Virus record (IMG/VR): IMGVR_UViG_2687453529_000004
Direction: 5' to 3' (one strand)
DNA: 45,019 nt
From: a virus
Taxonomy: Duplodnaviria > Heunggongvirae > Uroviricota > Caudoviricetes
In this document: piece after piece, positions 2,814-37,090 of the stretch
Layout: the number at the start of each line of letters is the position of its first letter
Position numbering within the stretch: position 1 is the first letter of the stretch
The notes under the pieces: model-generated
What the model was told of the DNA's origin: nothing
The model's input: the letters and a program-made list of their open reading frames with translations, nothing else
Database searches by the model: none
Program-made: the position numbers and the translations under genes

Positions 2814-3083
2814 TTAAGCCCATGTCCTTACATGCTGATCTGTCGTAATGAAAGGCATTAAAGAAGATATGTTTTTACTGCTATCAACAATCCTCATGTT
2901 TACGAAAAAACCACCGCGATCAATGCCCGTACATCTTTCGTTTTCTGGCTCCTCGTAATCAATAATGCAGCCAATAACATCAACAAGAACCCCATTTTCT
3001 TCTTCAAGACTGAACAGGCCACTGTCATATACAATTGCGTTAAACTGTTCTCTGTTATCGAATCGTAATGTTATATCCCGCAT
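2814..3083 (-). CDS. Hypothetical protein (89 aa) between the two fibre genes
   Basis: ORF only; no family recognised. Confidence 0.35.
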   Translation of the reverse strand: MRDITLRFDNREQFNAIVYDSGLFSLEEENGVLVDVIGCIIDYEEPENERCTGIDRGGFFVNMRIVDSSKNISSLMPFITTDQHVRTWA

Positions 3084-5446
3084 TATACGTATTCCTTAAG
3101 CTGCGTATCTGACAATGCTCTGTTCCAGAAACGGAGGTTTTTTATATGACCATTAAGGTGTCGTAATCCTGTCGTCGTTTGCCCCCCGATTCGAATCACG
3201 GCTGCTTCACGAATATATTTCCATACTGTTTTGGTTTCAGTGCTTATATGCTTATTTGCAAATGAGCATGTCATGCCGTCAGCCTTAACCCTGAATCCCA
3301 TAACGAGATCTCTTACTCCGCATGACTCATATACACGCCGGTTAGCCCCGCCTATATCGCAATACGAATAACCATCCTGACTGATAGTTCCAGAAGAACC
3401 AAACCCCATAATAAATGGGCCTCCGGACTGGTGATTTTCTGAATCAATGACACGCGGTGCAGCATTATGAGAAATAAACCAGTTTTTATGGACTTCCACC
3501 ATGAACGTAAAAGGCATGGTATACATATTTTTCATCAGCGGAAATTTACATAAATCTGATGCACGAGTCGCTGGCTCTGTTGTCGTTATGATAAAGGAAG
3601 TTGCACAAGCACCATACTCGAATTGCGGGGTGGTTACTTCTATCCAGTCACCTGTTGCAAAAGCCCCCACTGCTCTGTCGGCTGCAATTTGCAGCTGCGT
3701 ACCAACCATTCCCCATTCTGGCAGACATTTCAGTGTTGCCTGAAAATATATCCATCCACTACCAGGGTCGATTTCAAAGTTTGCTGTTAATAGCTGGGCA
3801 TTACCACCCGTAATTTGTAGTTCATGAGTCTGTAATGACAAATAGGCGTCACAAAGGAAAGTGTATCCTTCCGAGTTATACCGTTCAAAACGGATACGTG
3901 CGCGAACATTGAGATCACTTCTTACCCTGAACGACGCGGTAACATACGGACCTTTACTGTACTGATCATCGCCAGTCACATCTATGCCTTTATTACCAGC
4001 AACTGTGCATATATTTCTCCCTGTTGTCGTTCCTGCTATGTCGCTTCCTACTGTGAAACGTCCATATTTAAACTCAAATTCATCTGTTGATGATGTTACA
4101 GATATACCACCGCTTTTATTCCACGCATCAGGATTAAAACTATTTACGAACATGTTTGTTCGCTGATTCTCTATCAGCAAACCATATTTTTCAAAACGAG
4201 GAGCGTTATTCCCTGCCACGGTAATATGCCCGGACTTATCAATATACGTTGCTGATGAAGCGCGGCTAAATTGGCATATGCCATTAACAGGCATTGTTAT
4301 TTCATCACTGCCGATGGTTATTGTTTTATAGCCCGGGGCATACCCTGTTATCGCTTCCAGAGAATCATTCAAGGGTAGCCAGATATCAGGAAGCGGAGGG
4401 ACTGAAGCAGGATCAGCGGCATCTTCTGCAATCCGGGCTGCATTCTCTGCTCTTGTTGCGGCTGACGTTGCTTCTATCTCGCTGGCTGCTGCTTTTGTTT
4501 CACTCGTCTTTGCGTTAGTTTCACTGGTTTTTGCAGCTTTTTGGCTATTAGCTGCCGCACTTGCAGAACCAGCTGCGGCACTCTCGCTTTGGGCCGCTGC
4601 ATCCTGACTGTTTTTTGCCGCAGTTTCGCTGGCTTTGGCATTCGTTTCGCTGGTCTTCGCTGCCGTCTGGCTGGACTTTGCGTTAGTTTCACTCGTCTTC
4701 GCAGCTTTCTGGCTGTTAGCCGCAGCAGTTGCTGATCCAGCTGCTGAAGTCGCAGAACCGGCTGCTGCGCTCTCGCTTTCAGCTGCTGCAGCCTGGCTAT
4801 TTTTCGCCGCAGTTTCACTGGCTTTGGCATTCGTTTCGCTGGTTTTCGCTGCCGTCTGGCTGGACTTTGCGTTGGTTTCGCTCGTCTTTGCGGCTGTCTC
4901 GCTGTTTTTCGCGTTGGTTTCTGATTTTTTGGCTGCTGTCGCGGAGTTTGCCGATGCAGTCTGCGAGGACGCTGCCGCCTGTGCGCTGTTAGCTGCATTC
5001 GTTTCTGAGGTTTTCGCCGCGTTCTTCGATGATGCCGCTGCAGTTTCGGATTTCTTTGCCACCGCTGCGCTCTGAGAGGCGGCTTCGGCGTTGCGTGCCG
5101 CTTCTTCCACCATTGCCTCAAAACGACGCAATGCCTCCGGCATGACATCATCTTCCGTCATGGCACCGAGAAAATCATTCAGCGTACCTGGTCTGGAACC
5201 TTCATAGACGGTAATGGTTCCGGCATGTGAAGGCGGAAAACCTTCAACCAGCAGGGTGACGCTGTACTGGCCATACTCAACATCCATGCTGTAACGCCCG
5301 GCTTCATCCGGATTTTCAGAGGCCACCGTGTTCACCAGTACCGTGGTGCTGTTACGCTTTGCCTTCAGTTGAATAGTGCAGTTCTGTATTGGTTTTCCCG
5401 CACCATCTTTCAGCACACCTGAGATTTTTACTGCTGCCATATCCAC
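3083..5446 (-). CDS. stf: Side tail fibre protein with internal tandem Ala/Ser/Thr/Lys-rich repeats and a LamG-like C-terminal domain
   Basis: 787 aa ORF immediately downstream of lom; N-terminus resembles lambda Stf; repeats KTSETNAK/AAKNSQ visible in the translation. Confidence 0.8.
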   Translation of the reverse strand: MDMAAVKISGVLKDGAGKPIQNCTIQLKAKRNSTTVLVNTVASENPDEAGRYSMDVEYGQYSVTLLVEGFPPSHAGTITVYEGSRPGTLNDFLGAMTEDDVMPEALRRFEAMVEEAARNAEAASQSAAVAKKSETAAASSKNAAKTSETNAANSAQAAASSQTASANSATAAKKSETNAKNSETAAKTSETNAKSSQTAAKTSETNAKASETAAKNSQAAAAESESAAAGSATSAAGSATAAANSQKAAKTSETNAKSSQTAAKTSETNAKASETAAKNSQDAAAQSESAAAGSASAAANSQKAAKTSETNAKTSETKAAASEIEATSAATRAENAARIAEDAADPASVPPLPDIWLPLNDSLEAITGYAPGYKTITIGSDEITMPVNGICQFSRASSATYIDKSGHITVAGNNAPRFEKYGLLIENQRTNMFVNSFNPDAWNKSGGISVTSSTDEFEFKYGRFTVGSDIAGTTTGRNICTVAGNKGIDVTGDDQYSKGPYVTASFRVRSDLNVRARIRFERYNSEGYTFLCDAYLSLQTHELQITGGNAQLLTANFEIDPGSGWIYFQATLKCLPEWGMVGTQLQIAADRAVGAFATGDWIEVTTPQFEYGACATSFIITTTEPATRASDLCKFPLMKNMYTMPFTFMVEVHKNWFISHNAAPRVIDSENHQSGGPFIMGFGSSGTISQDGYSYCDIGGANRRVYESCGVRDLVMGFRVKADGMTCSFANKHISTETKTVWKYIREAAVIRIGGQTTTGLRHLNGHIKNLRFWNRALSDTQLKEYV
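4470..5090. repeat. Tandem ~200 bp coding repeats inside stf
   Basis: Near-identical DNA blocks (e.g. tgccgcagtttcgctggctttggcattcgtttcgctgg at ~4611 and ~4806); repeated peptides in the forward and shadow frames. Confidence 0.7.
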
Positions 5447-5504: not shown

Positions 5505-6104
5505 TCAGAATTTATAACCGACACCCACGATGAAACCGTCAGTGCGCCAGTCGCCACTGCCGGAGCCTTCATAAGCAATATCAATGGCCACGGATTCGGT
5601 CGGGTTAAACTGCACGCCAGCTCCCCACGCCAGAGACGTGTTGCTGTGGCGATCGTCATCACTTCCGGTCAGCACATCGTGCGTTTTCCCCTTGTTGTCA
5701 GTTACGCGGAGATAATCCCCGGAGAACGTCGAAACACGGCTGTAAGCCACACCTGCCATCGCATAAGCACTGAACCATTCATTCACGCGTACAGATGGCC
5801 CCGCCATCATGCTGAACCAGCGGTTACGCACTGAATCTTCATGCCAGCGGGTATCGCTGTAATGCGTTTTTTGCTCATCTTTGGCATTGGCATAACTGAA
5901 TGACGTCACCAGCCCCAGCGTGTCCGTAAATTCATAACGGTATTTCACGTTAATGCCCTTCAGGTCATCACTGCCTGGCATATCAGTATAGGTCTGAAGA
6001 TACCCGGCGCTTAGTGTGGACTGATGCTCTGCTGCGCTCGCTGGCGTACCAGCGGCAACCAGCCAGACTACTGCGGACAGAATAACAGCACATAATTTAC
6101 GCAT
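5505..6104 (-). CDS. lom: Outer membrane protein Lom (Ail/Lom family)
   Basis: 199 aa, signal peptide, C-terminal ...GVGYKF beta-barrel terminus; position after J. Confidence 0.85.
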   Translation of the reverse strand: MRKLCAVILSAVVWLVAAGTPASAAEHQSTLSAGYLQTYTDMPGSDDLKGINVKYRYEFTDTLGLVTSFSYANAKDEQKTHYSDTRWHEDSVRNRWFSMMAGPSVRVNEWFSAYAMAGVAYSRVSTFSGDYLRVTDNKGKTHDVLTGSDDDRHSNTSLAWGAGVQFNPTESVAIDIAYEGSGSGDWRTDGFIVGVGYKF

Positions 6105-6171: not shown

Positions 6172-9100
6172 TCAGCTGATACTGATGCCTGCGGTGGCTT
6201 TCTTCATCACCACAACCAGCAAATCGCTGATACTTGCTGTGGGATACCAGCCATTTACCAGCCATGCCGATACAGAAAATTCCAGTGTCATGACACCACT
6301 GCCTGCAGGCATATCAATAACACCCGTATATATCAGCGTATTATCCAGAGCCGTTCGGTTATAAATTTCAGCACCGTTTTTTCGTACTATCAGACGGCAT
6401 GAGGAGTAGATATCAGTATGATCTTGCTCATGTTTAGCGCCACTGAATGCCACCGCCGGGATAACAATTTGCCGGTCAAACGGCTGATCGTCATAAACCC
6501 TGACGGTAATGGTTCCTGATGGCCACCGCTCCGGTGCACGGGAGTCCCGGGGGAAAGCTTTGCCCACCGTTTTAACGAGATCGCCTTCAATCTGGTTCGC
6601 GGACAGTTTTCCCAGAACCCGGCAGTTCTCGTTAATCGTGACGTTGTTGAGCGTCCCGGAGTTCGCATTCACGTTACCGCTGATATCGGCATTTTTCGCC
6701 GTCAGCCGCCCGTCCGGTGTCAGGGAAAATGCCGGAGGATTACCGCCGCTGGTAATGGTGGGAGCCGTCAGATATTTCAGGAACACTTCGTTCATGAATA
6801 TCTGATCGCCCTGACCAACAAACATCGGCTTTGTGTTGCCATTCGCAGGATTAACCATCGCAATCCTGTCCGCCGCCAGCAGCACCTGACTCTGCATGCC
6901 GTCAGGGGTGTTCTCAATACCGGCACCAATACCCGCGATATAAAGGCGTCCGTCCTGCATCTGCTGCAGCTTCACAGCCCACATGCTGTTCAGGTTATTA
7001 TTTGTATCAACCTGAACCTTCTGTATCTGCTGGATCGCCGCACTCTGGTCTTCCAGTTTCTTATTGACAGTCTGCGTGATTTCATTGCTGACATCCGTAA
7101 TGGACGTCCTGATTTCAGCCAGGTCAGGCGCAAGCTGACCGTTATCAATCTGCGTCCACAGCTCCTGAGCCAGATGTGTTTTCCCTATCTCTCCTTTGAA
7201 AAAATCCAGGTAACCTTCCGCATCATCGCTCGCCCGACCGATAGCCTCCACGAATGCCGATTTGCCAACAGTATTCACACTGCGGATATAAAAGTAATAA
7301 TCATGGCCCGGTTTGATATTGATACTGGCGGCTATCCAGTACAGTGCCGTACCAAGATAACGCGCGCTGGTTTCAACCTGCCTGATATCCGCAATCCGTT
7401 TTTCCGAGAACCAGAACTCAAACTGTACCGTCGGGTCATAAACCGCAAGATGCGGCGTGGCGGTTATCTGAAAATAGCCCGGTGTCAGCTCAATCCGAGA
7501 CGGCGCTGCCGGTGCGGCAATCCGGAACGATACCGATGCCGGATCGCCCTGCTGTCCCCACGCATTTACCGCCCGGACTGTCAGCCTGTAGTTCCCCAAC
7601 GCCAGTTGTGTGAAGCGGTATGTGGTTTCCGTCGTCCGGGCCGTGCTGACCAGCCGCTCACTGCCGTCGTCCGCTGTTACGGTCAGACGGAGCAGGAAGC
7701 TCACGCCCTTCACCACCTTCGGTGTGTCCCAGCGCGCCAGCACCTGATATTCCCCGCTGTCTGCGGTGACTTCGGCAGTCAGGTGCTGCACCGCTGGCGG
7801 CGTGACACCATTCACCGTGCCGCTCTGGTCGCCGTCAAAGTGCGCCCCGTTATCCACGATGGCCTCTTTTTCCGGCACATGCTGCACGGCGGTGATGGCA
7901 TACGTGCCGTCGTCGTTCTCACGGATACTCACACAGCGGAACAGGCGCTGGCGCAGCGTCGGCAGCTTCAGCCCCCACACACTGTATTCTGCAACGCCGT
8001 CAGGAACCCGGTTCACTTTCACCTTAAGTCCGTCGGTGACGGACTGAACCTCCACGCTGACCGGATTACCACTTCCGTCAACCAGGCTTATCAGCGTGGT
8101 ACCGGAGGATGGCAGCGTGATTTCACGGTCGAGCGTCAGCGTCCGGGTCTGGCTGTTCACCGCCAGCACGCGACCACCGGTGCTGATACCGACATAGTCA
8201 TCATCGCAGATTTCAATGACATCGCCCGGTACATGGCGAAGCCCTTCAGCACCCACGCTGAAATCCACGGTCTGCGTCTCCAGCAGTTCCGTTTTAATCA
8301 GCCACAGCCCGGCGCGGTGTGCCTGCCCCCGGCTGGTACAGCCAAAGGCATCCATCTTCGTGACATTACGACCGTAACGGGCAATGGCCTGCGTATCTTC
8401 AACAAGCTCTGTCGCCGTCTCCCAGCCGTTGTCCGGGTCAATCCAGTTCACCTCAACGGCATTATGGCGGTCCTTCAGGGCGCTGAAGCTGTAGCGGAAC
8501 GGCGCGCCATCATCCGGCATCACCACATTACTGCGGTTATAGGTCCACACCTTATCCGACGGTCGGTCCTGCACGAACGTCAGCGTCTGCCCGTTCCATA
8601 CCGGCATACAGCGCATCGCCGAGCAGAAATCACTGAGCACATCCCACGCCTTGCGCTGTGTGGTCAGGTACGCATTACAGGTGATGCGCGGCTCCGTGCC
8701 GCCAAAGCCGTCCGGCACTGACTGGTCGCAGTACTGGCCGATGACATACAGCGCCCATTTGTCCACATCCGCCGCACCAAGACGTTTCCCCATGCCGTAG
8801 CGTGGATGGGTCAGCATATCCCACAGACACCAGGCCATGTTATTGCTGTATGCTGGCTTAAACGTTCCGTCCCAGATACCGCTGTATTGCCGAGTCTGCG
8901 GGTTATAGTTCGACGGCACCTGCAGAATACGCCCGCGCAGATGATAATTACGGCTCACCTGCTGGCTGCCGAACTGCTCCGAATCCACCTGTACGCCGAC
9001 CAGTGCCGTGTTCGGGTAGCACTGTTTCACATCGATGATTTCGGTGTATGACGACCAGAGCGTTTTGTTCTGCAGCTGGTCTGTGGTGCTGTCCGGCGTC

Positions 9101-9651: not shown

Positions 9652-9711
9652 TCCTCACGCTCCATAAACGACAAAACCGCCCGCAGGCGGTTTCACATAA
9701 AACATTTTGCA

Positions 9712-10797
9712 TCAGCGACCAATCACCACAACCTGACCACCATCCCCTTCGTCTGCCGTGCTGATCTCCTGAGAAACCACGCGTGACCCCACGCGCATTT
9801 CACCGTACAGAACAGGCAGAACATTGCCCTGGGCAACCATGTTATCCAGTGAGGAGAAATAGGTGTTCTGTTTGCCGTTATCCGTTGTCTGTGTACGGGG
9901 AGTTCTGGCTTTCGGTGCCAGCATCTGCGCCACACCACCGAGCACCATACTGGCACCGAGAGAAAACAGGATGCCGGTCATACCACCGGCCCCAATGGCT
10001 GCCCCCCATGCTGCAAGGGTGGCTCCGGCAGTAAAGAATGATCCGGCAATGGCGGCTGCTCCCAGGACAATCTGGAATACGCCACCTGACTTGGCCCCGG
10101 CGACTCTGGGAACAATATGAATCACAGCGCCATCAGGCAGAGTCTCATGTAACTGCGCCGTTAACCCGGACGTGCTGACGTCCCGCCCGGCAATCCGTAC
10201 CTGATACCAGCCGTCGCAGCCGCAGTAAATTGCGGCGTGATTCGGCACCGATGAACCAAAACAGCACAGCAGCACATCGCCCGGCTGTGCCGCTGACAAC
10301 GGCACCTGATACAGCCCCGTCGCCTCCAGATTATCCAGATAGAGATTCTGGCCGTTACGCCACCAGTCATCCTCACGATGAAAGTCCGGCATCTCAATCC
10401 CCGCCAGATGATAAGCATCCCGGAACAGTGTGTAACAGTCCGTCACACCGTGCTCAAAGCGCCGCCCGGTGAGATGCGGCACACAGCGGAACTTATGAAT
10501 CGTCCCCCGGCAGACCAGCCACCACGGCAAATCACTCTGCACCTGCAGCCGCCGGTCGGCCTCACTCAGCCAGGGCAGACCACCGGGGTGGCTGTGGACC
10601 AGCGCCACAATCTCACCCTGCATTTCTGCCTGCAGCCAGTCTTCCGGCGACATACGGAAATACGCCTCCGGCTCACCGGAGATATTCACGCAGGGGAAAT
10701 ATCTTTCCCCCTCCGGCGTGCTTACCACGAAGCCGCACGACTCCGCTGGCGCACATCGCCGGGCGTGCGCCAGAATCGCTGATTCTGTCTGTGTCAT
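9712..10797 (-). CDS. Tail tip assembly proteins K and I fused in one frame
   Basis: 361 aa ORF: N-terminus is gpK (JAMM HSHP motif, NlpC/P60-like Cys), C-terminus is the gpI end (...TADEGDGGQVVVIGR); lambda has separate overlapping K (199 aa) and I (223 aa). Confidence 0.75.
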   Translation of the reverse strand: MTQTESAILAHARRCAPAESCGFVVSTPEGERYFPCVNISGEPEAYFRMSPEDWLQAEMQGEIVALVHSHPGGLPWLSEADRRLQVQSDLPWWLVCRGTIHKFRCVPHLTGRRFEHGVTDCYTLFRDAYHLAGIEMPDFHREDDWWRNGQNLYLDNLEATGLYQVPLSAAQPGDVLLCCFGSSVPNHAAIYCGCDGWYQVRIAGRDVSTSGLTAQLHETLPDGAVIHIVPRVAGAKSGGVFQIVLGAAAIAGSFFTAGATLAAWGAAIGAGGMTGILFSLGASMVLGGVAQMLAPKARTPRTQTTDNGKQNTYFSSLDNMVAQGNVLPVLYGEMRVGSRVVSQEISTADEGDGGQVVVIGR

Positions 10798-10802
10798 GGG
10801 AT

Positions 10803-11501
10803 TTACTGCGAAAGTTTGTTAATGGAAAGGAAGCCGCCAAAGTTGCCGACGTTATTGCGGAACTTACAACCGCTCAGGCATTTGCTGCATTTATCCTTCG
10901 TGATATCGGACGTTGGCTGGTCATATTCATCCGCGACCGCCGGACCGCTATAACCGCACTCGTCACCGCGATAGGTCCAGGTGCAGGTGTTGGCCAGCAT
11001 GATACGTCCCGGAAAAACAGCGCCATCCGTTTCCGTCGGCGTGGACAGTACAAAGGAGGCACTCACCGCGCTCAGTTCGCTGCACTGCTCAATGCGCCAG
11101 CGGCTGATCACCTCCTGCTCCGGATCGGCATAACTGTTTCCGTTGACGAAGTTCACCGCATCCAGAAAACGGGCGTAAACCTTACGCCGGACCACCGTTC
11201 CGCCGACCAGACTCTGCATATCTTCCGCCATCCCGGTGACCATACCGTACAGGTTAGAAACCGTCAGCGTGGGGCGCGTACTGGTGCCTTTGCCATTCAG
11301 TTCAAAACCGCTCCCCTGAATGGGATACGGCTGATACTGTCGCCCCTGCCAGGTGACCGGCTCACCTTTTTCGTTCTGCTCATTACAGAAAAAATAACGT
11401 TCTCCACCGACCTCTGTCAGGTCGATTTCCCAGAGCACCACGCTGGCCGACTGCTCCGCACGGGTGCATTCATTCAGTGTTTCCTGCCGGATATCCTGCA
11501 T
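10803..11501 (-). CDS. L: Minor tail protein L
   Basis: 232 aa, matches recalled lambda gpL. Confidence 0.9.
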   Translation of the reverse strand: MQDIRQETLNECTRAEQSASVVLWEIDLTEVGGERYFFCNEQNEKGEPVTWQGRQYQPYPIQGSGFELNGKGTSTRPTLTVSNLYGMVTGMAEDMQSLVGGTVVRRKVYARFLDAVNFVNGNSYADPEQEVISRWRIEQCSELSAVSASFVLSTPTETDGAVFPGRIMLANTCTWTYRGDECGYSGPAVADEYDQPTSDITKDKCSKCLSGCKFRNNVGNFGGFLSINKLSQ

Positions 11502-24739: not shown

Positions 24740-24916
24740 TGTTCATTCCACGGACAAAAACAGAGAAAGGAAACGACAGAGGCCAAAAAGCTCGCTTTCA
24801 GCACCTGTCGTTTCCTTTCTTTTCAGAGGGTATTTTAAATAAAAACATTAAGTTATGACGAAGAAGAACGGAAACGCCTTAAACCGGAAATTTTTCATAA
24901 ATAGCGAAAACCCGCG

Positions 24917-31848: not shown

Positions 31849-32011
31849 GATTCCTCCTTGCTGCCAGTCGCAACCATTTTTTATCAACCAGGCTGGCGGT
31901 ATATCCGAGCAGTGTTGGTATTTCGGAAGGCTTCAGCTCCGGTTTACGCTTACGACGATCTGGTACTCTGTAGATGTGTCCGTTCATGACACGAATAAGC
32001 GGTGTAGCCAT
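31841..32011 (-). CDS. ninE: NinE protein
   Basis: Hand-translated 56 aa [35 protein letters not shown]... (below the ORF-track cutoff); overlaps ybcN stop and ybcO start. Confidence 0.7.
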   Translation of the reverse strand: MATPLIRVMNGHIYRVPDRRKRKPELKPSEIPTLLGYTASLVDKKWLRLAARRNHG

Positions 32012-32466
32012 TACGCCTCCTGCTTGTCGCGGAGCAGCTGGAACTCGCAGCTCTGCGGAATAGTCAGGTGGCAGCCAATATTCACCGCCCAGGCTTCAAC
32101 CTTACACAGGAAGACATACATCTCTCCGGTATCAAGATCGGAGGTATGGCGTAACGACTGGATAGTGGTGATATCACCGGTTACGACATCAACCAGGTCT
32201 TTGGTTTCATAACCGAGATATGTGTGTTTGAGAGCATCTTTTACCCAAGCTGGAGTAGCGAACGTTTTACCCCTGCTGATGAGGTATTCACTGATTTCGC
32301 TGTACCACATGTGGCTGAGTGCATTCTGGGAAAGACTGCGTTTCTCACGCCACGGTTTAAGCACCATGCGAAAGCATTTGCCCTCCTCCAGATAAGGCTG
32401 GATCTGCCGACCGATAGCGGTGAAGTTACCGCGATGTAATTTGATGCCATCTTGTGGGAGATTCAC
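32011..32466 (-). CDS. ybcN: NinB/YbcN-like recombination protein
   Basis: 151 aa, DLP12 ybcN-like. Confidence 0.7.
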
Positions 32467-32653
32467 GCTTCACCTCCGCAGAGGTCAAACGCTGGATACA
32501 ATATATCGCAGGTGCATTTCTGCATCTGTGGAGGGAGAAGAGAGTTTGGATTGTGTGTGCGCATAAACGTCCCCGTTTAGCGCAGAAGTCACCGGAGTTG
32601 TTCAGGCTCCGATGACATGATTATGGCGAGTTGATTATCGCAAATCAAAGGTT

Positions 32654-33010
32654 TTAATTGTGCTTTATTCCTTCAAGCGTTGCCTTCATACCAACCAAAG
32701 AAATGTTTAGCTCTCCAACTTTCTCAGGGCTATATAATTCAGAATGAAGCCAATATTCTGATTTATCTAAACATCTTTTAGCCAGCTCTCGATCAAAGTC
32801 TACGACTTGGGAAGACGCTTCATACCAAAGTCTATAAAGTTTTTCTTCTTCGTTTGGGTTATTAGGCTCACCACGTTTTAATTTTTCAGTATATAAAATT
32901 GTTGAATAAATCGCAGGAGTTAATCCAGTGATTGCCCTCTGCCGCAGATCGGATTTGTTTGTTATCCACCCCAACAGACGATCTCCCATCCATGTGATAA
33001 TTGTATCCAT
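32654..33010 (-). CDS. Hypothetical protein (118 aa)
   Basis: ORF with GAAGGG RBS-like sequence 8 nt upstream; no family recognised. Confidence 0.4.
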   Translation of the reverse strand: MDTIITWMGDRLLGWITNKSDLRQRAITGLTPAIYSTILYTEKLKRGEPNNPNEEEKLYRLWYEASSQVVDFDRELAKRCLDKSEYWLHSELYSPEKVGELNISLVGMKATLEGIKHN

Positions 33011-33471
33011 GCTTTAGCCCTTCTTAGTAAATAGTGTGTAGGGCGACTGAAGGACCGAGTTTATGCTTTTTCGCATTGCTTTCAGTTAGTACACCGGTAT
33101 CGCACCGGAAACAATCCTACGGCAAATTGGTTGTCTGACCTCTCGGTTTTTCGTGCATTAACCGATACCCACTACAGTCTCGGCGAAAGCTGCACACCCC
33201 CAGGGTGTACTGGTAGCACTCGGCACAGCCTAGCACGCCACTTTCTTCTCACTATCCAGTCTAATTTTATCCCCTAGTCAGACACTCAGATGTAGTGCTC
33301 CGCAGCGGCATGCGGGGGAATACAAAAACTCGGACAAAATTGGGCCCTCCTTTTTGAATCACTCGCGGGGATGTAGTTATTAATACATGGAAAAAGATCT
33401 GTTTTCAAATCCAACATTATATGGTTTCAATACCACGGGGTGGCTATGTGTTTCTCATTGTTAATTGGAAT
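33011..33471 (-). other. ORF-free, hairpin-rich segment (candidate ncRNA, leader or decayed gene)
   Basis: No ORF of 60 aa or more in any frame; GC-rich inverted repeats; minus-strand promoter-like TTGAAA-16-TATTAA at ~33381-33408. Confidence 0.3.
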
Positions 33472-33795
33472 CTACTGTAATCGATCCGAACGTAAATGCG
33501 GCAAAACTCGACTCCACTTATCATCCTGCCACGGCCGGAATTTTACATGTGCCGTTTCTCTGGCAAGGATTGCCTGTGCCTTATTGAGTATCTGGGGATA
33601 TTCTTGCTCGATAGAAGTGAAGCGACCAGCTTCACGATGCTCCGCAACCTGAAGAAGAGGAGTAACGTTCTGGTAGGTAATTAACATCACATTCCCTGCT
33701 CGCCATAACCAGGCGAGTGTGCAAAGTTCGTTATCAGTGAATTGTTTTGTGATTGGGTATTGTTGAACTGCTAGAACGAGAACGCCAGCATCCAT
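33472..33795 (-). CDS. Hypothetical protein (107 aa)
   Basis: ORF only; no family recognised. Confidence 0.4.
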   Translation of the reverse strand: MDAGVLVLAVQQYPITKQFTDNELCTLAWLWRAGNVMLITYQNVTPLLQVAEHREAGRFTSIEQEYPQILNKAQAILARETAHVKFRPWQDDKWSRVLPHLRSDRLQ

Positions 33796-33906
33796 TGGCA
33801 GTCTCTATAGTAAAACCATAGCTCAGGACGCTTCGTTCAGGATAGATAATTTTATTGTACTTACCTAACTTTCTTACTATAGCACGGTTGAAAAAGTGAT
33901 TATTAC

Positions 33907-35433
33907 TCAAAAATAAACCTCACCATCAACCATATATTTGAGAGTACTTATCGCCTGCTGGGCGGATATTGTTTTCATTAAAGGATAGTGTTTAAAAACA
34001 ATGCCATTCATAAAATAGATATCACAGGTTTTATTATCTGTATTGATTATGATTTTTTCGAATGTTTTATAGGCAAGTGTACGACATAGCTCTCGCCCAT
34101 TTTTACTGGTTAAGTCAATAGCATGAAAATCACCAAGTGAACTCACCGCTTTACTCTTCAAAGTTTTTAATGATACAGAAGCCCTTCGTAATTCCTTATC
34201 TAATACTCTGATTTTTTCTGCTATAGCGGTAACTTCAGGCGCAACAGATAATGCAGCAATTAAATTATTAATTTTCATCTGGAGCTCAATAATTTTCAAC
34301 TCTAAAGTTTCATTAGCATCTTTCTTGTTTTCAACTGGTTGGATTTTACTACAATTAAAAAGCAACTCATTAATGATATTATAATCAACCAAATCTCTCT
34401 TTATTGATGGCCTGTCACATCGATGCAGTCTTCTCATCGGACAAACATAATAGCCATGCAAACTTCCAGATACCGCATGAACAATCATGGTATTACCACA
34501 AGCCTCGCACTTCATAACTGTTCGAAGTAGATTTATCAACATAGGATTTTTGCTACTATTGCTAATACCAAAAGGTGCCAACCGAATTTCCTGTACAGCG
34601 TAAAACAAATCATCTGATATGACTCTGGGATAATAGCCAGCGATTTCACTTATTCCTTTACCTCTTGCACGATATGAAGGTACGCATATACCTATCAGAG
34701 CTTTATTCGCTAATAATTTTTCAATTACAGAAGGTCCCCATGCACTTTCTTTTCCTGAGAAATTCTTTACAGCATGATCATTTAAATACTTGGCTATTGC
34801 ATTCAATGAGCGCCTTTCCATCCTGAGTTTAAAAATTAGCTCAATAGTTTTCACCCTGTCGGGGTCTGGAACAAAAGCCGTTCTTTTGTCATCTAAGGAG
34901 AGCCATCTCGGACAAGACGCCGTCATAATCGTACCTGATTCCAGTGCATCCTGCCGTTTTTTCTTCCATGATAATTTAACCCGACTTGACTTTATCTCGC
35001 TTTCTTCATTTGCCCTTTGTGCTATAAGTATGGCTTTTATTAATGAATATGGCTCATTCAAAGAGTCAATATTATAGACTGTATTGTCGCAAAGAGTTAT
35101 AACATCAATACCGTGATTCAAAATCAATTTCAGACGTTCAATCGCTTCACCGACTTTTTCTCTTGAAAGTCTGTCCAGACTTTCAACTAACAATGTAGTT
35201 CCTGGCAATATATAACCATGCTCTATAGCATCTAAAAATTCCGAAAAAGCTCCTGATTGTGCATGCTTTCCTTTGAATGCACTTAATCCTAAATCTTCAT
35301 ATGTTATGGTATCAAGATAATAATCACTATTTACCTTTAACCATTCAGCAATAAGTCTTCTCTGTCGGTTTAATGAGTCGCCAGACATCTGACCTGGTGA
35401 TGAAAATCGCATATATGCTATGGCTTTTTTCAT
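33907..35433 (-). CDS. ybcK: Large serine recombinase (YbcK-like)
   Basis: 508 aa; N-terminal resolvase catalytic domain (YMRFSSPGQ... Ser nucleophile), C-terminal recombinase/zinc-ribbon/coiled-coil; matches recalled DLP12 YbcK. Confidence 0.85.
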   Translation of the reverse strand: MKKAIAYMRFSSPGQMSGDSLNRQRRLIAEWLKVNSDYYLDTITYEDLGLSAFKGKHAQSGAFSEFLDAIEHGYILPGTTLLVESLDRLSREKVGEAIERLKLILNHGIDVITLCDNTVYNIDSLNEPYSLIKAILIAQRANEESEIKSSRVKLSWKKKRQDALESGTIMTASCPRWLSLDDKRTAFVPDPDRVKTIELIFKLRMERRSLNAIAKYLNDHAVKNFSGKESAWGPSVIEKLLANKALIGICVPSYRARGKGISEIAGYYPRVISDDLFYAVQEIRLAPFGISNSSKNPMLINLLRTVMKCEACGNTMIVHAVSGSLHGYYVCPMRRLHRCDRPSIKRDLVDYNIINELLFNCSKIQPVENKKDANETLELKIIELQMKINNLIAALSVAPEVTAIAEKIRVLDKELRRASVSLKTLKSKAVSSLGDFHAIDLTSKNGRELCRTLAYKTFEKIIINTDNKTCDIYFMNGIVFKHYPLMKTISAQQAISTLKYMVDGEVYF

Positions 35434-35620
35434 GGTGACACCTGCTAACGTATGCTTTTATAAACCTTAGTGGTGGGATATAATTTTTGTTTAATTTTTA
35501 TTTAAAAAGACAATTAAGGTCACATTATCTTGAATATACAACAATAATCGTATTGCAATTTTCTTACGCCATAATCTTGAAAGCACAAAAGAATACATAA
35601 AAAAATAAAGACATTAACAA

Positions 35621-35665
35621 AAAGCATAAAACGAGGCTCATATAAATATAAGAGCCTCCATATTT
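35621..35665 (-). terminator. Rho-independent terminator downstream of emrE
   Basis: Hairpin GAGGCTC-N12-GAGCCTC followed by a U-rich run on the minus strand. Confidence 0.4.
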
Positions 35666-35689
35666 TAGTCGTTTAGAAACAAATTATTT

Positions 35690-36022
35690 TTAATGTGGTG
35701 TGCTTCGTGACAATAAATTAATAACCAACACACCGGCACAAATCAACATCATGCCTATAATGGCTGGCAGGTCCAGCCGTTGGCCGAAAAGTCCCCATGA
35801 CAGTAAGCTAATCAGGACAATACCGACTCCTGACCAGATAGCATAAGCAATCCCTGTAGGAATATAAGCCAGCGTCTGAGCTAATAACCAGAATGATGCA
35901 CAATAACAAATAATTGTACCAACAGATGGCCATAACCGTGTAAAACCTTCTGAAAACTTCATTAAGGTTGTACCAATGACCTCTGCAAGTATTGCACCAC
36001 CAAGATAAATATAAGGGTTCAT
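35690..36022 (-). CDS. emrE: Small multidrug resistance efflux transporter EmrE
   Basis: 110 aa from MNPYIYLGGAILAEVIGTT; four TM segments, conserved Glu14; matches recalled EmrE. Confidence 0.85.
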   Translation of the reverse strand: MNPYIYLGGAILAEVIGTTLMKFSEGFTRLWPSVGTIICYCASFWLLAQTLAYIPTGIAYAIWSGVGIVLISLLSWGLFGQRLDLPAIIGMMLICAGVLVINLLSRSTPH

Positions 36023-36089
36023 AGAATATTCTTTCCTGTTCAAACTGGAGAGAATTGTACTACAGTTTGAACTCAACTCACCTGTTTCA

Positions 36090-36392
36090 TCATTGTGTAC
36101 CCATTGATGTTCTTTTATATACCCTCAATACCCGTTTCATCGCGGCACTCTGGCGACACTCCTTAAAAATCAGATTCGTGCTCACCTTTCCTTCCCGTTC
36201 TTCTCTGGTAGCAAACCGGTAATACACCGTTCGCCAGACCTTACCTTCGATAGCCAGAAGACCTGCCCGTGCCATTTTAGCCGCAGCCTGATTTATGCTG
36301 GTTACCGTTGCGCCTGTTACCGCGGCAACGTCCTGCGCACAGAATTTCTTATGAGTCCCCAGGTAATGAATAATTGCCTCTTTGCCCGTCAT
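36090..36392 (-). CDS. ren: Ren protein
   Basis: 100 aa, MTGKEAIIHYLGTH...; matches recalled lambda Ren. Confidence 0.8.
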   Translation of the reverse strand: MTGKEAIIHYLGTHKKFCAQDVAAVTGATVTSINQAAAKMARAGLLAIEGKVWRTVYYRFATREEREGKVSTNLIFKECRQSAAMKRVLRVYKRTSMGTQ

Positions 36393-37090
36393 ACCCTTGC
36401 TCCTTTCAGCCCAAACTTAGCTTTGATTTCTGCGATCTTCGCCAGAGCCTGTGCACGATTTAGAGGTCTACCGCCCATGACAGGAAGTTGTTTTACTGGT
36501 TCAGGTATAGCCTCACCACGGTTAATTCGTGCGGTCATACAGGACAGTTCATCGGCAGCCTTGCGCCGTAATTCCGCGTCAGTCAACGCATTGGCCCGCA
36601 TGTTCTGATACAGGTTGGTAACCAGCCAGTAGTGCGCGTTTGATTTCCACGGATAAGACTCTGCATCCGGATACAGCCCGCGCTTCCGGCAATACTCGTA
36701 AACCATATCAACCAGCTCGCTGGCGTTTGGCAGCCCGGCGGTAACGGATGCTTCTTCCCGGCACCAGGCGACAAACTGCCCGGGTGATGGCAGGAATGGT
36801 CGATTCTGCCGACGGGCTACGCGCATTCCAGCGTTAACCTGTTCCATTGTGGTGATCCCGTTTTCCCGAAAAGCCAGCACCCACTGGCGGCGGATTTCGT
36901 TCAGTTCATTCTGGTCACGGTTAGCCAGGCTCGCCGGGAAAGTTGCCAGTAACTGGCTGAACACACCGTTGATGATCTGCGCTACCTGCTGTACCTGCGG
37001 CTTTTCGTCGTACTGTTCCGGCATGTTGTTGGCGATCCGACGCATCTGCTCACGGTCAAAGTTAACCATCTGTGCGGCGATGTTTTTCAT
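36389..37090 (-). CDS. P: Replication protein P (helicase loader)
   Basis: 233 aa, matches recalled lambda gpP. Confidence 0.9.
   Translation of the reverse strand: MKNIAAQMVNFDREQMRRIANNMPEQYDEKPQVQQVAQIINGVFSQLLATFPASLANRDQNELNEIRRQWVLAFRENGITTMEQVNAGMRVARRQNRPFLPSPGQFVAWCREEASVTAGLPNASELVDMVYEYCRKRGLYPDAESYPWKSNAHYWLVTNLYQNMRANALTDAELRRKAADELSCMTARINRGEAIPEPVKQLPVMGGRPLNRAQALAKIAEIKAKFGLKGARV

Follow-up and report, generated by a model that had tools for sequence, protein, structure and literature searches.

Lambdoid phages display mosaicism of the nin region and carry accessory genes, or morons, inserted between conserved genes, as described for HK97/HK022-type phages. Another mode of mobility is represented by Tn4451 and Tn5397, whose serine recombinases, TnpX and TndX, excise a circle and reinsert it, the recombinase gene itself making up much of the element. 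The closest described counterpart of the locus studied here is the renD-emrE-ylcJ-ybcK segment (b0542-b0544) of prophage DLP12 in Escherichia coli K-12, which displays the same genes, order, strand and spacing. In K-12, a Rho/NusG-dependent terminator ('t_ybcK') situated in the untranslated leader keeps ybcK silent (PMC4150792), and a sabinene tolerance phenotype was described for ybcK knockout and overexpression (PMC7181518). Our survey of the literature on ybcK, DLP12, emrE and the recombinase retrieved no functional work beyond the Rho-terminator and sabinene-tolerance studies.

Genetic context of the emrE-ybcK block

The window (i.e., the whole analyzed stretch of 45,019 nt) represents a lambdoid prophage of the DLP12 family, of full length and located at argU. 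It has the argU-intD integration locus in common with K-12 DLP12, yet the latter is a remnant, while the window retains intact O, P, ren, cI/cro, head and tail genes. The initial annotation placed ybcK and emrE between ren and the nin genes in an arrangement like that of DLP12. Both statements are borne out, the former by ORF positions and Pfam domains and the latter by 96.9% identity to K-12 over 2438 bp (33868-36303). In a genome that is 100% identical to the window, RefSeq names the genes emrE, ylcJ (frameshifted, unlike in K-12) and ybcK. The final conserved early-operon gene before the cargo is ren, which is intact in the window, whereas K-12 renD is interrupted by IS3; compared by BLAST with ren of cargo-free phages, homology stops at ~36117. 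The cargo span (33868-36089) is compositionally foreign, with a G+C content as low as 35.7% vs. 50.5% for ren-P-O, 49.9% for the nin genes and 49.7% for the window. The features of the locus are collected in Table 1.

Table 1. Features of the ren-nin interval and its cargo in the analyzed window.
Feature	Coordinates	Strand	Remarks
ren (Ren-like exclusion protein)	36090..36392	-	PHROG 142 Ren-like, 1.8e-41
emrE leader	36023..36089	-	Left edge of the low-G+C cargo
emrE	35690..36022	-	110 aa from ATG at 36022
CATTAAAAATAATTT	35681..35695	-	Overlaps emrE stop codon; ybcK segment starts here in other lineages
emrE intrinsic terminator	35618..35658	-	G+C-rich hairpin 35633-35658, U-tract 35618-35632
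ybcK leader	35434..35689	-	AT-rich (27% G+C); contains frameshifted small ORF ylcJ
ybcK	33907..35433	-	508 aa ORF
YbcK domains			Catalytic, long helix E, recombinase, zinc ribbon, coiled coil, small C-terminal domain
ybcK 3' flank common to K-12 DLP12	33868..33906	-	Clear K-12 homology ends at 33868
Island, strain-variable cargo slot	32650..33867	-	Previously 'unassigned'
Rha/Ant-type antirepressor 3' remnant	33472-33795	-	Pfam P22_AR_C, 1.1e-15
Island 118-aa ORF	32654-33010	-	Function unassigned; ORF list
TTTGATT	32643..32649	-	Start of conserved nin block (ylcH-ybcN...)
ninB/ybcN	32011-32466	-	ORF list

emrE and its flanking signals

The emrE product matches the Multi_Drug_Res/SMR family (PF00893, 3e-35, 110 aa), is identical to K-12 EmrE at 108 of 110 positions and keeps the essential membrane-embedded Glu14. 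The listed ORF is longer, as it opens at an upstream TTG, and we took the ATG given in Table 1 as the start. emrE encodes a proton-coupled SMR-family multidrug/cation efflux transporter, a type of cargo that benefits the lysogen. A perfect 10-bp inverted repeat (36028-36062) lies immediately 5' of the emrE ribosome-binding site; the leader is kept in all 13 variants seen, with one stem mismatch in the fliE-type allele, and its fold is no better than those of shuffled sequences (z = -0.6). An Rfam scan of positions 32000-37000 gave no match at E up to 1, which rules out a known riboswitch as the leader hairpin.

Each of the two genes had been thought to possess its own terminator-like hairpin. 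For emrE this holds: the fold reaches z = -2.6, was equalled by 4 of 200 shuffles and has diverged homologous versions 3' of emrE in other lineages. It does not hold for ybcK, where shuffled sequences fold as well as the 127 nt after the gene (z = -0.6) and a consensus scan detected a single weak site. Promoter-like sites for emrE or ybcK occur at chance frequency in the consensus scan.

YbcK belongs to the integrase-type large serine recombinases

YbcK carries the Resolvase (PF00239, 7.7e-19, residues 4-161), Recombinase (PF07508, 2.3e-14) and Zn_ribbon_recom (PF13408, 8.2e-08) domains, falls into PHROG 95 'integrase' (4e-120) and is identical to its K-12 counterpart at 498 of 508 positions. 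In a comparison with 24 homologues of 29-61% identity, residues R9, S11 (the catalytic serine), Q15, R23, D87, R88, R91, R140 and E144 were invariant, as were the zinc cysteines C309, C312, C331 and C339. The AlphaFold model (pLDDT 80) places long helices (346-429) after the zinc ribbon, and Foldseek aligned it over its full length with the SPbeta (3.7e-19), phiC31 (4e-14) and Bxb1 (1e-13) integrase complexes. When YbcK itself was compared with PDB by phmmer, no match was returned, while the family profile matched SPbeta integrase (4.5e-16). PADLOC defence models matched neither YbcK nor the two island ORFs. The ORF is full-length in 85 of 87 loci, with dN/dS of 0.02-0.11. Taken together, YbcK is an intact and selectively maintained integrase-type large serine recombinase with predicted activity. 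The strong purifying selection, along with the conservation of the catalytic residues, means that it should have a real DNA substrate, although none emerged from our searches.

YbcK is not, on positional grounds, the integrase of its own prophage, because that function at the argU end is assigned to the tyrosine integrase IntD and because the same ren-emrE-ybcK block occurs in an O157:H7 prophage that is integrated at icd and possesses another tyrosine integrase along with an excisionase. In the window, ybcK is internal and away from the prophage-host junction.

Within the ybcK leader, the 135 bp nearest the start codon vary less (pi 0.016-0.03) than the third codon positions of the gene (0.051). 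The sabinene-tolerance phenotype suggests some ybcK expression in a lysogen-like state, which fits poorly with complete silencing.

emrE and ybcK are found apart

Of 5,426 complete E. coli genomes, 1,398 contain the full emrE-ybcK block, as do 12 deposited phage genomes, among them those of Turner, Perceval and 4A7. emrE without ybcK adjoins fliE in roughly 2,300 genomes and is also present in strain Rb-50. In turn, none of the ybcK homologues in Atlantibacter, Pantoea, Yersinia, Erwinia, Ewingella, Kluyvera and Citrobacter is accompanied by emrE; the accessory slots that they occupy are situated at the beginning of the nin region or downstream of tail-fibre genes. Homologues at 72-76% identity align over the ORF alone; shared flanks (-120 to +1914) were found only between locus L088 of Atlantibacter sp. 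RC6 and Logan metagenome contig L177, the YbcK homologue of which most closely resembles that of Atlantibacter. Going by this distribution, emrE and ybcK are separable modules. They would represent two independent, horizontally acquired low-G+C genes stacked in the ren-nin accessory slot, and their pairing would be historical rather than functional.

Search for recombination sites and mosaicism of the adjacent island

The initial annotation suggested that the recombinase could serve inversion or integration at a target nearby, possibly linked to the adjacent island, and recommended a search for inverted repeats or attP-like sites close to ybcK. That search (seed 7) yielded inverted and direct pairs at chance-level short lengths only, and across the whole 45-kb window (seed 12) there were no relevant inverted repeats of at least 22 nt. 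The 15-nt CATTAAAAATAATTT has one exact copy in the window, and the window offers no candidate for a cognate attachment-site pair of ~40-50 bp with imperfect dyad symmetry around a central dinucleotide. With no repeat pair, a single copy of CATTAAAAATAATTT and IntD at argU, the idea of a nearby target is not upheld; what we find is the DLP12 arrangement of known cargo with recombination sites absent. Several candidates were discarded along the way. A 15-nt inverted pair (33891-33905/35318-35332) has one arm within ybcK and lacks conservation in K-12, a 9-bp inverted repeat 3' of ybcK (CTATAGTAA...TTACTATAG) is conserved neither in Perceval nor in K-12, and the GGTCAC/GTCAC motif seen at several junctions is not enriched (17 observed vs. 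17.8 expected).

The sequence downstream of ybcK changes from strain to strain. Past 33868, K-12 has a diverged homologue for ~100-170 nt, and among alleles the ybcK 3' flank is hypervariable (pi 0.14-0.25). The rha remnant of the island shares 88% nucleotide identity with the 3' third of a full-length rha gene of phage PhiR5_1; the slot is taken by ybcL-ybcM in K-12 and by an alpha/beta hydrolase gene in phage Perceval. The ybcK-proximal island junctions vary by strain (33898, 33868, 33624, 33573 and ~33490-33500). On the distal side the boundary is constant: seven different upstream sequences join at TTTGATT, with BLAST breakpoints at 32638-32652, nearly all of them at 32648-32652. Multiple proximal junctions combined with one fixed distal boundary point to lambdoid module exchange and not to one YbcK site, and the proposed tie between the recombinase and the island is not supported. 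The variability around ybcK would accordingly stem from such exchange, by one homologous and one illegitimate crossover.

Alternative roles of YbcK

In one reading, which we consider very unlikely, YbcK serves a minimal self-mobile element that measures ~2.07 kb, comprises the leader, ybcK and ~300 bp, and inserts just past the emrE stop codon. The reading originates from the comparison of Perceval (emrE-ybcK-hydrolase) with Rb-50 (emrE-hydrolase), which differ by 2073 bp bounded by CC[A/C]CATTAAAAATAATTT and ~20 nt of partial similarity. These 38-bp imperfect direct repeats would correspond to attL and attR, and the junction in Rb-50 to an empty attB; that junction is indeed an exact left/right hybrid, the trace expected if a small element had been excised or integrated. 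In LF82-/SE15-type strains the expected junctions would be GGTCACGCCCCCATTAAAAATAATTTATTTTTAAACGAC for the circle and CACCACATTAAAAATAATTTCTTTTGAATCGAG for the empty site. In the window analyzed here, the element would be locked in because its right end had been replaced. Four further empty sites in IMG/VR contigs, a second ybcK-present/absent pair (K-12 vs. the fliE remnant), the occurrence of homologues in different slots of different phages and the restriction of their similarity to the ORF agree with mobility. However, the 38-bp repeats are confined to the Perceval lineage and are absent from both the window and the K-12/fliE pair. The dyad symmetry of the attB and attP reconstructed from Perceval and Rb-50 is at chance (12 and 11 of 22 matches; shuffle mean 10.8, 95th percentile 13), a 15-bp identical core with extended similarity is atypical of serine-integrase sites, and the conservation of the putative element-side arm does not exceed that of synonymous sites. 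Moreover, the right repeat amounts to another emrE 3' end with its terminator, diverged in sequence and situated past the rha-gene remnant, and thus fits one homologous plus one illegitimate crossover; contig L177 is built in a similar way, with repeats of 181 bp that are gene fragments and not recombinase-like. Perceval-type junctions are filled in 172 genomes and empty in two. Since among the flank haplotypes of 20 filled and five empty loci the empty ones form one group, they are consistent with a single event, and recurrent gain or loss of ybcK is without support. The Perceval-type repeats and empty sites thus look like the product of a single event, the repeats lacking the symmetry of att sites.

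The notion that YbcK is a second integrase, directed to an alternative bacterial site or recently captured as a module still beside its attP, appears very unlikely to us. It draws on the membership in a phage-integrase PHROG and the fold resembling SPbeta, Bxb1 and phiC31 integrases, as well as on distant relatives: gp53 of Burkholderia phage Bcep176 is the sole annotated recombinase there and lies at the early/late junction, and the Erwinia, Ewingella and Yersinia homologues sit at the extreme prophage end, adjoining host DNA. Yet, the Yersinia copy adjoins a tRNA 3' fragment typical of tyrosine-integrase sites, and all E. coli copies examined are prophage-internal beside emrE, none of them at a prophage-host junction, in prophages that occupy argU or icd, each beside its own tyrosine integrase. 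The hypervariable 3' flank of ybcK is, furthermore, where the terminal homologues would place attP. The same flank, together with the constant end at TTTGATT, could be read as the work of an invertase or a cassette-capturing enzyme shaping the island as an inversion switch or in an integron-like manner; a 16-nt inverted repeat that flanks the Citrobacter koseri homologue, with one arm overlapping a type IV pilin-like gene at its start, adds to it, although by a rough estimate the chance of this repeat being fortuitous is ~10%. We regard this role as barely credible, given that the repeat searches described above found no relevant inverted repeat of at least 22 nt in the 45-kb window and only chance-level short repeats around ybcK, that none of ~170 related loci has the ybcK region inverted, that the proximal junctions fall at five or more positions, and that a flanking inverted repeat recurs in none of nine homologue contexts.

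Overall, it is quite probable that the span is ordinary, already annotated DLP12-family cargo, and that YbcK is neither the integrase of this phage nor the maker of the island and has no sites in cis. In a lysogen, ybcK would be silent through the Rho-dependent terminator of its leader, as reported for K-12, and it is probably transcribed only under antiterminated early-rightward read-through after induction or infection. YbcK may then act in trans on a site pair of ~40-50 bp outside the window; deprived of partner sites in cis, it would perform neither inversion nor excision within it. A wider proposal is that the YbcK family constitutes a distinct class of large serine recombinases that are accessory and do not serve as integrases. 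Purifying selection would maintain them in cargo slots (the head of the nin region or the stretch past the tail fibres) of temperate phages infecting enterobacteria, and they may be produced in lytic development only. They would either move themselves as gene-sized elements between co-infecting phages, with the Perceval/Rb-50 junctions as a footprint, or recombine sites on competing mobile elements or the host chromosome. We consider it unlikely.

The emrE-ybcK cargo is already known and annotated in thousands of genomes. The span as found therefore matters little, and the by-products of our analysis are negative or descriptive: separable modules, a mosaic island, and a YbcK that is not the phage integrase and has no sites in cis. 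Nevertheless, about one in four complete E. coli genomes, as well as viable phages, encode an intact serine integrase-type enzyme with conserved catalytic residues. Finding the sites of YbcK could provide a new recombinase/att pair for genome engineering and would explain the second recombinase in these phages.

Comparison with known systems

YbcK has the domain order and the catalytic and zinc residues of the serine integrases (SPbeta SprA/YokA, phiC31, Bxb1, TP901-1 and the Listeria A118-type Int). Its identity to the solved ones is 14-19%, and the model predicts an extra small C-terminal alpha/beta domain (~444-507). Unlike the genes of these integrases, ybcK is located off the prophage end with no identifiable attP beside it, in a phage that uses a tyrosine integrase. 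We know of no attB/attP pair and no directionality factor for YbcK. The mode of movement of Tn4451 and Tn5397 resembles what a self-mobile ybcK would do, but the ybcK loci show no terminal dinucleotide or short inverted ends, their boundaries differ by lineage and their flanking repeats are gene-fragment duplications. In contrast to morons, ybcK has no clear terminator and appears to be Rho-silenced rather than expressed in the lysogen. In other respects the locus is moron-like: its G+C content deviates, emrE has its own terminator, the module junctions are sharp with one common boundary, and the genes flanking the slot carry different cargo in related phages.

Gene organization of the cargo region

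The window comprises a lambdoid prophage that is essentially complete and is read from the minus strand; over the 4.1 kb tested it is 100% identical to chromosomes such as that of E. coli FDAARGOS_497. In RefSeq, the gene order of such chromosomes is replication protein O, P, Ren-like protein, emrE, ylcJ (frameshifted), ybcK, an ORF with the P22AR C-terminal domain, a hypothetical ORF, a ylcH-like ORF, ybcN, ninE, ybcO, rusA, ylcG and Q, and one prophage end is annotated with the tyrosine integrase IntD and tRNA-Arg (argU). Our ORF list and domain scans of the window agree with this annotation, and the coordinates in the initial annotation proved exact. Two independent cargo genes occupy the ren-nin slot of this DLP12-family phage: emrE, which encodes an SMR efflux pump, and ybcK, which encodes an intact, selected enzyme of the serine integrase type that is not the integrase of the phage and has no partner sites in cis. 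In the tail-fibre ORF (3083-5446; Prophage tail fibre N-terminal domain), a 21-nt repeat occurs 14 times at 4449-4933, arranged as two 189-nt higher-order units.

Coordinates of the cargo genes in the window and of repeats at related loci
Feature	Sequence	Position	Strand	Remarks
ybcK	window	33907-35433	-	508 aa; Resolvase, Recombinase and Zn_ribbon_recom domains
emrE	window	35690-36022	-	110 aa; SMR domain
ren	window	36090-36392	-	
38-bp imperfect direct repeats	L005 (phage Perceval)	3888-3925 and 5961-5998		
Single hybrid copy without ybcK	L091 (E. coli Rb-50)	6001-6038		
181-bp direct repeats	L177 (Logan metagenome contig)	7671-7851 and 10651-10831		flank a 2980-bp block; DUF1367 is a nin-region gene

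The G+C content of the block 33868-36089 is 35.7% (27% in the ybcK leader), while the flanking replication and nin genes have 50.5 and 49.9%, respectively. The proposal that each cargo gene is followed by its own hairpin is true of emrE only, which has a good intrinsic terminator (hairpin 35633-35658 plus U-tract, z = -2.6), since the sequence 3' of ybcK shows no significant fold (z = -0.6) and the promoter/terminator consensus scan gave chance-level results. Some conservation (pi 0.016-0.03) is seen in the 135 bp preceding the ybcK start codon, as would fit a role as promoter or leader; in K-12, a Rho/NusG-dependent terminator in the ybcK leader silences the gene (PMC4150792). In the emrE leader, directly 5' of the ribosome-binding site, the two perfectly matched 10-bp arms of an inverted repeat are separated by 15 nt (36028-36062). 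The leader is conserved in 13 of the 13 variants seen, with one stem mismatch in the diverged fliE-type allele; no Rfam match was found for it and its fold energy is unexceptional. Several otherwise identical strains (related genomes H1-H4 and locus L029) carry an IS2/IS3-family insertion ~50 bp 3' of the ybcK stop, at the window equivalent of 33856-33858.

YbcK as a large serine recombinase

By every criterion of sequence and predicted structure save attachment sites, YbcK is a large serine recombinase. A match of 4e-120 places it in the PHROG "integrase" family of these enzymes, and R9, S11, Q15, R23, D87, R88, R91, R140 and E144, as well as the four zinc cysteines, are invariant in YbcK and 23 homologues of 29-61% identity. 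The family profile retrieves from PDB the integrases of SPbeta (4.5e-16), TP901-1 and phiC31. The AlphaFold model (pLDDT 80) comprises a catalytic domain, long helix E, a recombinase domain, a zinc ribbon, a coiled coil and a small C-terminal domain, and aligns over its full length with the SPbeta, phiC31 and Bxb1 integrase-DNA complexes. Of 87 related loci in E. coli and phages, 85 retain the complete 508-codon ORF; pairwise dN/dS is 0.02-0.11, with dS up to 0.17. The evidence thus favors the prediction that YbcK is a functional recombinase. Overexpression and deletion of ybcK in BL21 yield a sabinene-tolerance phenotype (PMC7181518), which does not bear on its mechanism.

Target sites and the neighboring island

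The initial annotation envisaged an inversion or integration system with a target site nearby, possibly related to the adjacent island. Neither suggestion gained support. Sensitive repeat searches around ybcK and across the entire 45-kb window returned only short chance-level matches, the only notable repeats of the window being the gene O origin iterons, a palindrome at 24764-24820 and the tail-fibre tandem repeats, and the region is inverted in none of the related loci compared. Variability in the non-coding 3' flank of ybcK (pi 0.14-0.25) far exceeds that at synonymous sites (0.051), and the flank therefore holds no conserved site. YbcK is not the phage integrase: the prophage lies at argU with IntD, the same ren-emrE-ybcK block is found in an O157:H7 prophage that occupies icd and has another tyrosine integrase plus an excisionase, and ybcK is internal to the prophage in every E. 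coli locus examined.

As for the island (32650-33867), replacement of the sequence after ybcK begins at 33898, 33868, 33624, 33573 or ~33490-33500 in about 170 related loci, while all variants end at 32648-32652, the start of the conserved nin block. All seven cargo variants found between ybcK and the nin genes end at the motif TTTGATT (32643-32649); six variable bases separate this motif from the conserved nin sequence, and it therefore marks a shared module boundary. Several proximal junctions with one fixed end correspond to lambdoid module replacement and not to recombination at one specific site, and the island is thus rejected as a product of YbcK. In the window it opens with the last ~300 bp of a Rha/Ant-type antirepressor gene; the full-length gene is carried by the related phage PhiR5_1, which has ren and lacks both emrE and ybcK.

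Separability of emrE and ybcK and possible mobility of the ybcK segment

The two cargo genes are separable. In about 2,300 of 5,426 complete E. coli genomes, a prophage remnant adjoining fliE has a 92%-identical emrE that is joined directly to ybcL-ybcM without ybcK; this remnant, not the argU prophage, is the commonest emrE context in these genomes. In E. coli Ecol_542 (L090, 4483-6342), emrE-ybcL-ybcM-IS200 is 90-92% identical to the K-12 genes. The order is ren-emrE-hydrolase in Rb-50 and ren-emrE-ybcK-hydrolase in Perceval. YbcK homologues of 42-61% identity from Atlantibacter, Pantoea, Yersinia, Erwinia, Ewingella, Kluyvera and Citrobacter are never adjacent to an SMR gene; they are found either where the nin region starts, following a C5 methylase or ParB-like gene, or at the prophage end, 3' of tail-fibre genes, and one is on a mobilisable element. 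The latter (Citrobacter koseri, L097; 49% identity) is flanked by a 16-nt inverted repeat (8805-8820 and 10623-10638; 14/16 complementary), one arm of which overlaps the start codon of a gene resembling those of type IV pilins, with weak matches to Shufflon_N and N-methyl motifs. This stretch might be a Hin-like invertible segment, with a rough chance-occurrence estimate of ~10%. In Yersinia enterocolitica (L092, ~9700-9790), the homologue (56% identity) at a lambdoid prophage end lies ~170 bp from a tRNA 3' fragment, where ARAGORN calls no gene. The next element, directly adjoining, is a P2-like prophage, which suggests a tandem arrangement of elements at a single tRNA site. On the metagenomic lambdoid contig L177 (Logan SRR27200988), the homologue, most similar to that of Atlantibacter, shares a 2980-bp block with a KGG-domain gene and dinI. 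It lies directly after a DUF1367 gene fragment, and a SIR2 gene is located a few kb upstream in the same cargo slot.

That the ybcK segment is itself a mobile element is a reading we consider very improbable, even though Perceval-type loci hold a 2073-bp ybcK segment between 38-bp imperfect direct repeats, whose 15-nt core CATTAAAAATAATTT overlaps the emrE stop codon (window equivalent 35681-35695), and Rb-50-type loci carry an exact left-half/right-half hybrid of these repeats. Yet the core is present once in the window, the right repeat is confined to the Perceval lineage (which includes 172 complete E. coli genomes, e.g., LF82 and SE15), and the K-12/fliE pair with and without ybcK has no repeats. 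Dyad symmetry of the reconstructed attB and attP does not exceed that of shuffles, and the "element-side" arm is not conserved. The right repeat is rather a diverged duplicate of the emrE 3' end and terminator, past a piece of the rha remnant, exactly the structure expected after one homologous and one illegitimate crossover between two phages. The analogous 181-bp repeats of L177 (86% nucleotide and 97% amino acid identity) are the first 60 codons of the DUF1367 gene, and such gene-fragment repeats again fit this pair of crossovers. Against the 172 complete genomes with the filled junction stand two with the empty one (the hybrid also occurs in four IMG/VR contigs); the five empty loci share their own flank haplotype, so that one event suffices.

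We favor two independently acquired cargo genes, of which ybcK would be silent in the lysogen, as the Rho terminator data from K-12 suggest, and would be transcribed with the antiterminated early-right operon; YbcK may then act in trans on sites absent from the window. The enzyme is widespread and conserved.

Comparison with DLP12 of E. coli K-12

The DLP12-like arrangement of ybcK and emrE as cargo was borne out: window 33868-36303 matches K-12 DLP12 (renD fragment 2, emrE, ylcJ, ybcK) with 96.9% identity over 2438 bp. EmrE differs at 2 of 110 residues, with Glu14 kept. YbcK is identical at residues 1-392, its 10 differences among 508 residues all falling at 393-506 (coiled coil and C-terminal part; window 33907-34257). 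The emrE-ybcK block (counted at ≥80% coverage) occurs in 1,398 of the 5,426 complete E. coli genomes and in 12 deposited genomes of phages (Turner, Perceval, 4A7, Lambda_4C10, 1W, 3W, D2 and several PhiR phages), so that this is a known and common arrangement. The outcome is the one that the initial annotation had set against its own proposal, namely known cargo arranged as in K-12 without recombination sites, and the emrE-ybcK feature is already known. Unlike K-12 DLP12, the prophage in the window is full length with an intact ren, and a different 1.2-kb island stands where K-12 has ybcL-ybcM after ybcK, the homology ending at 33868 and restarting at 32649. The differences from K-12 fall outside the emrE-ybcK feature.
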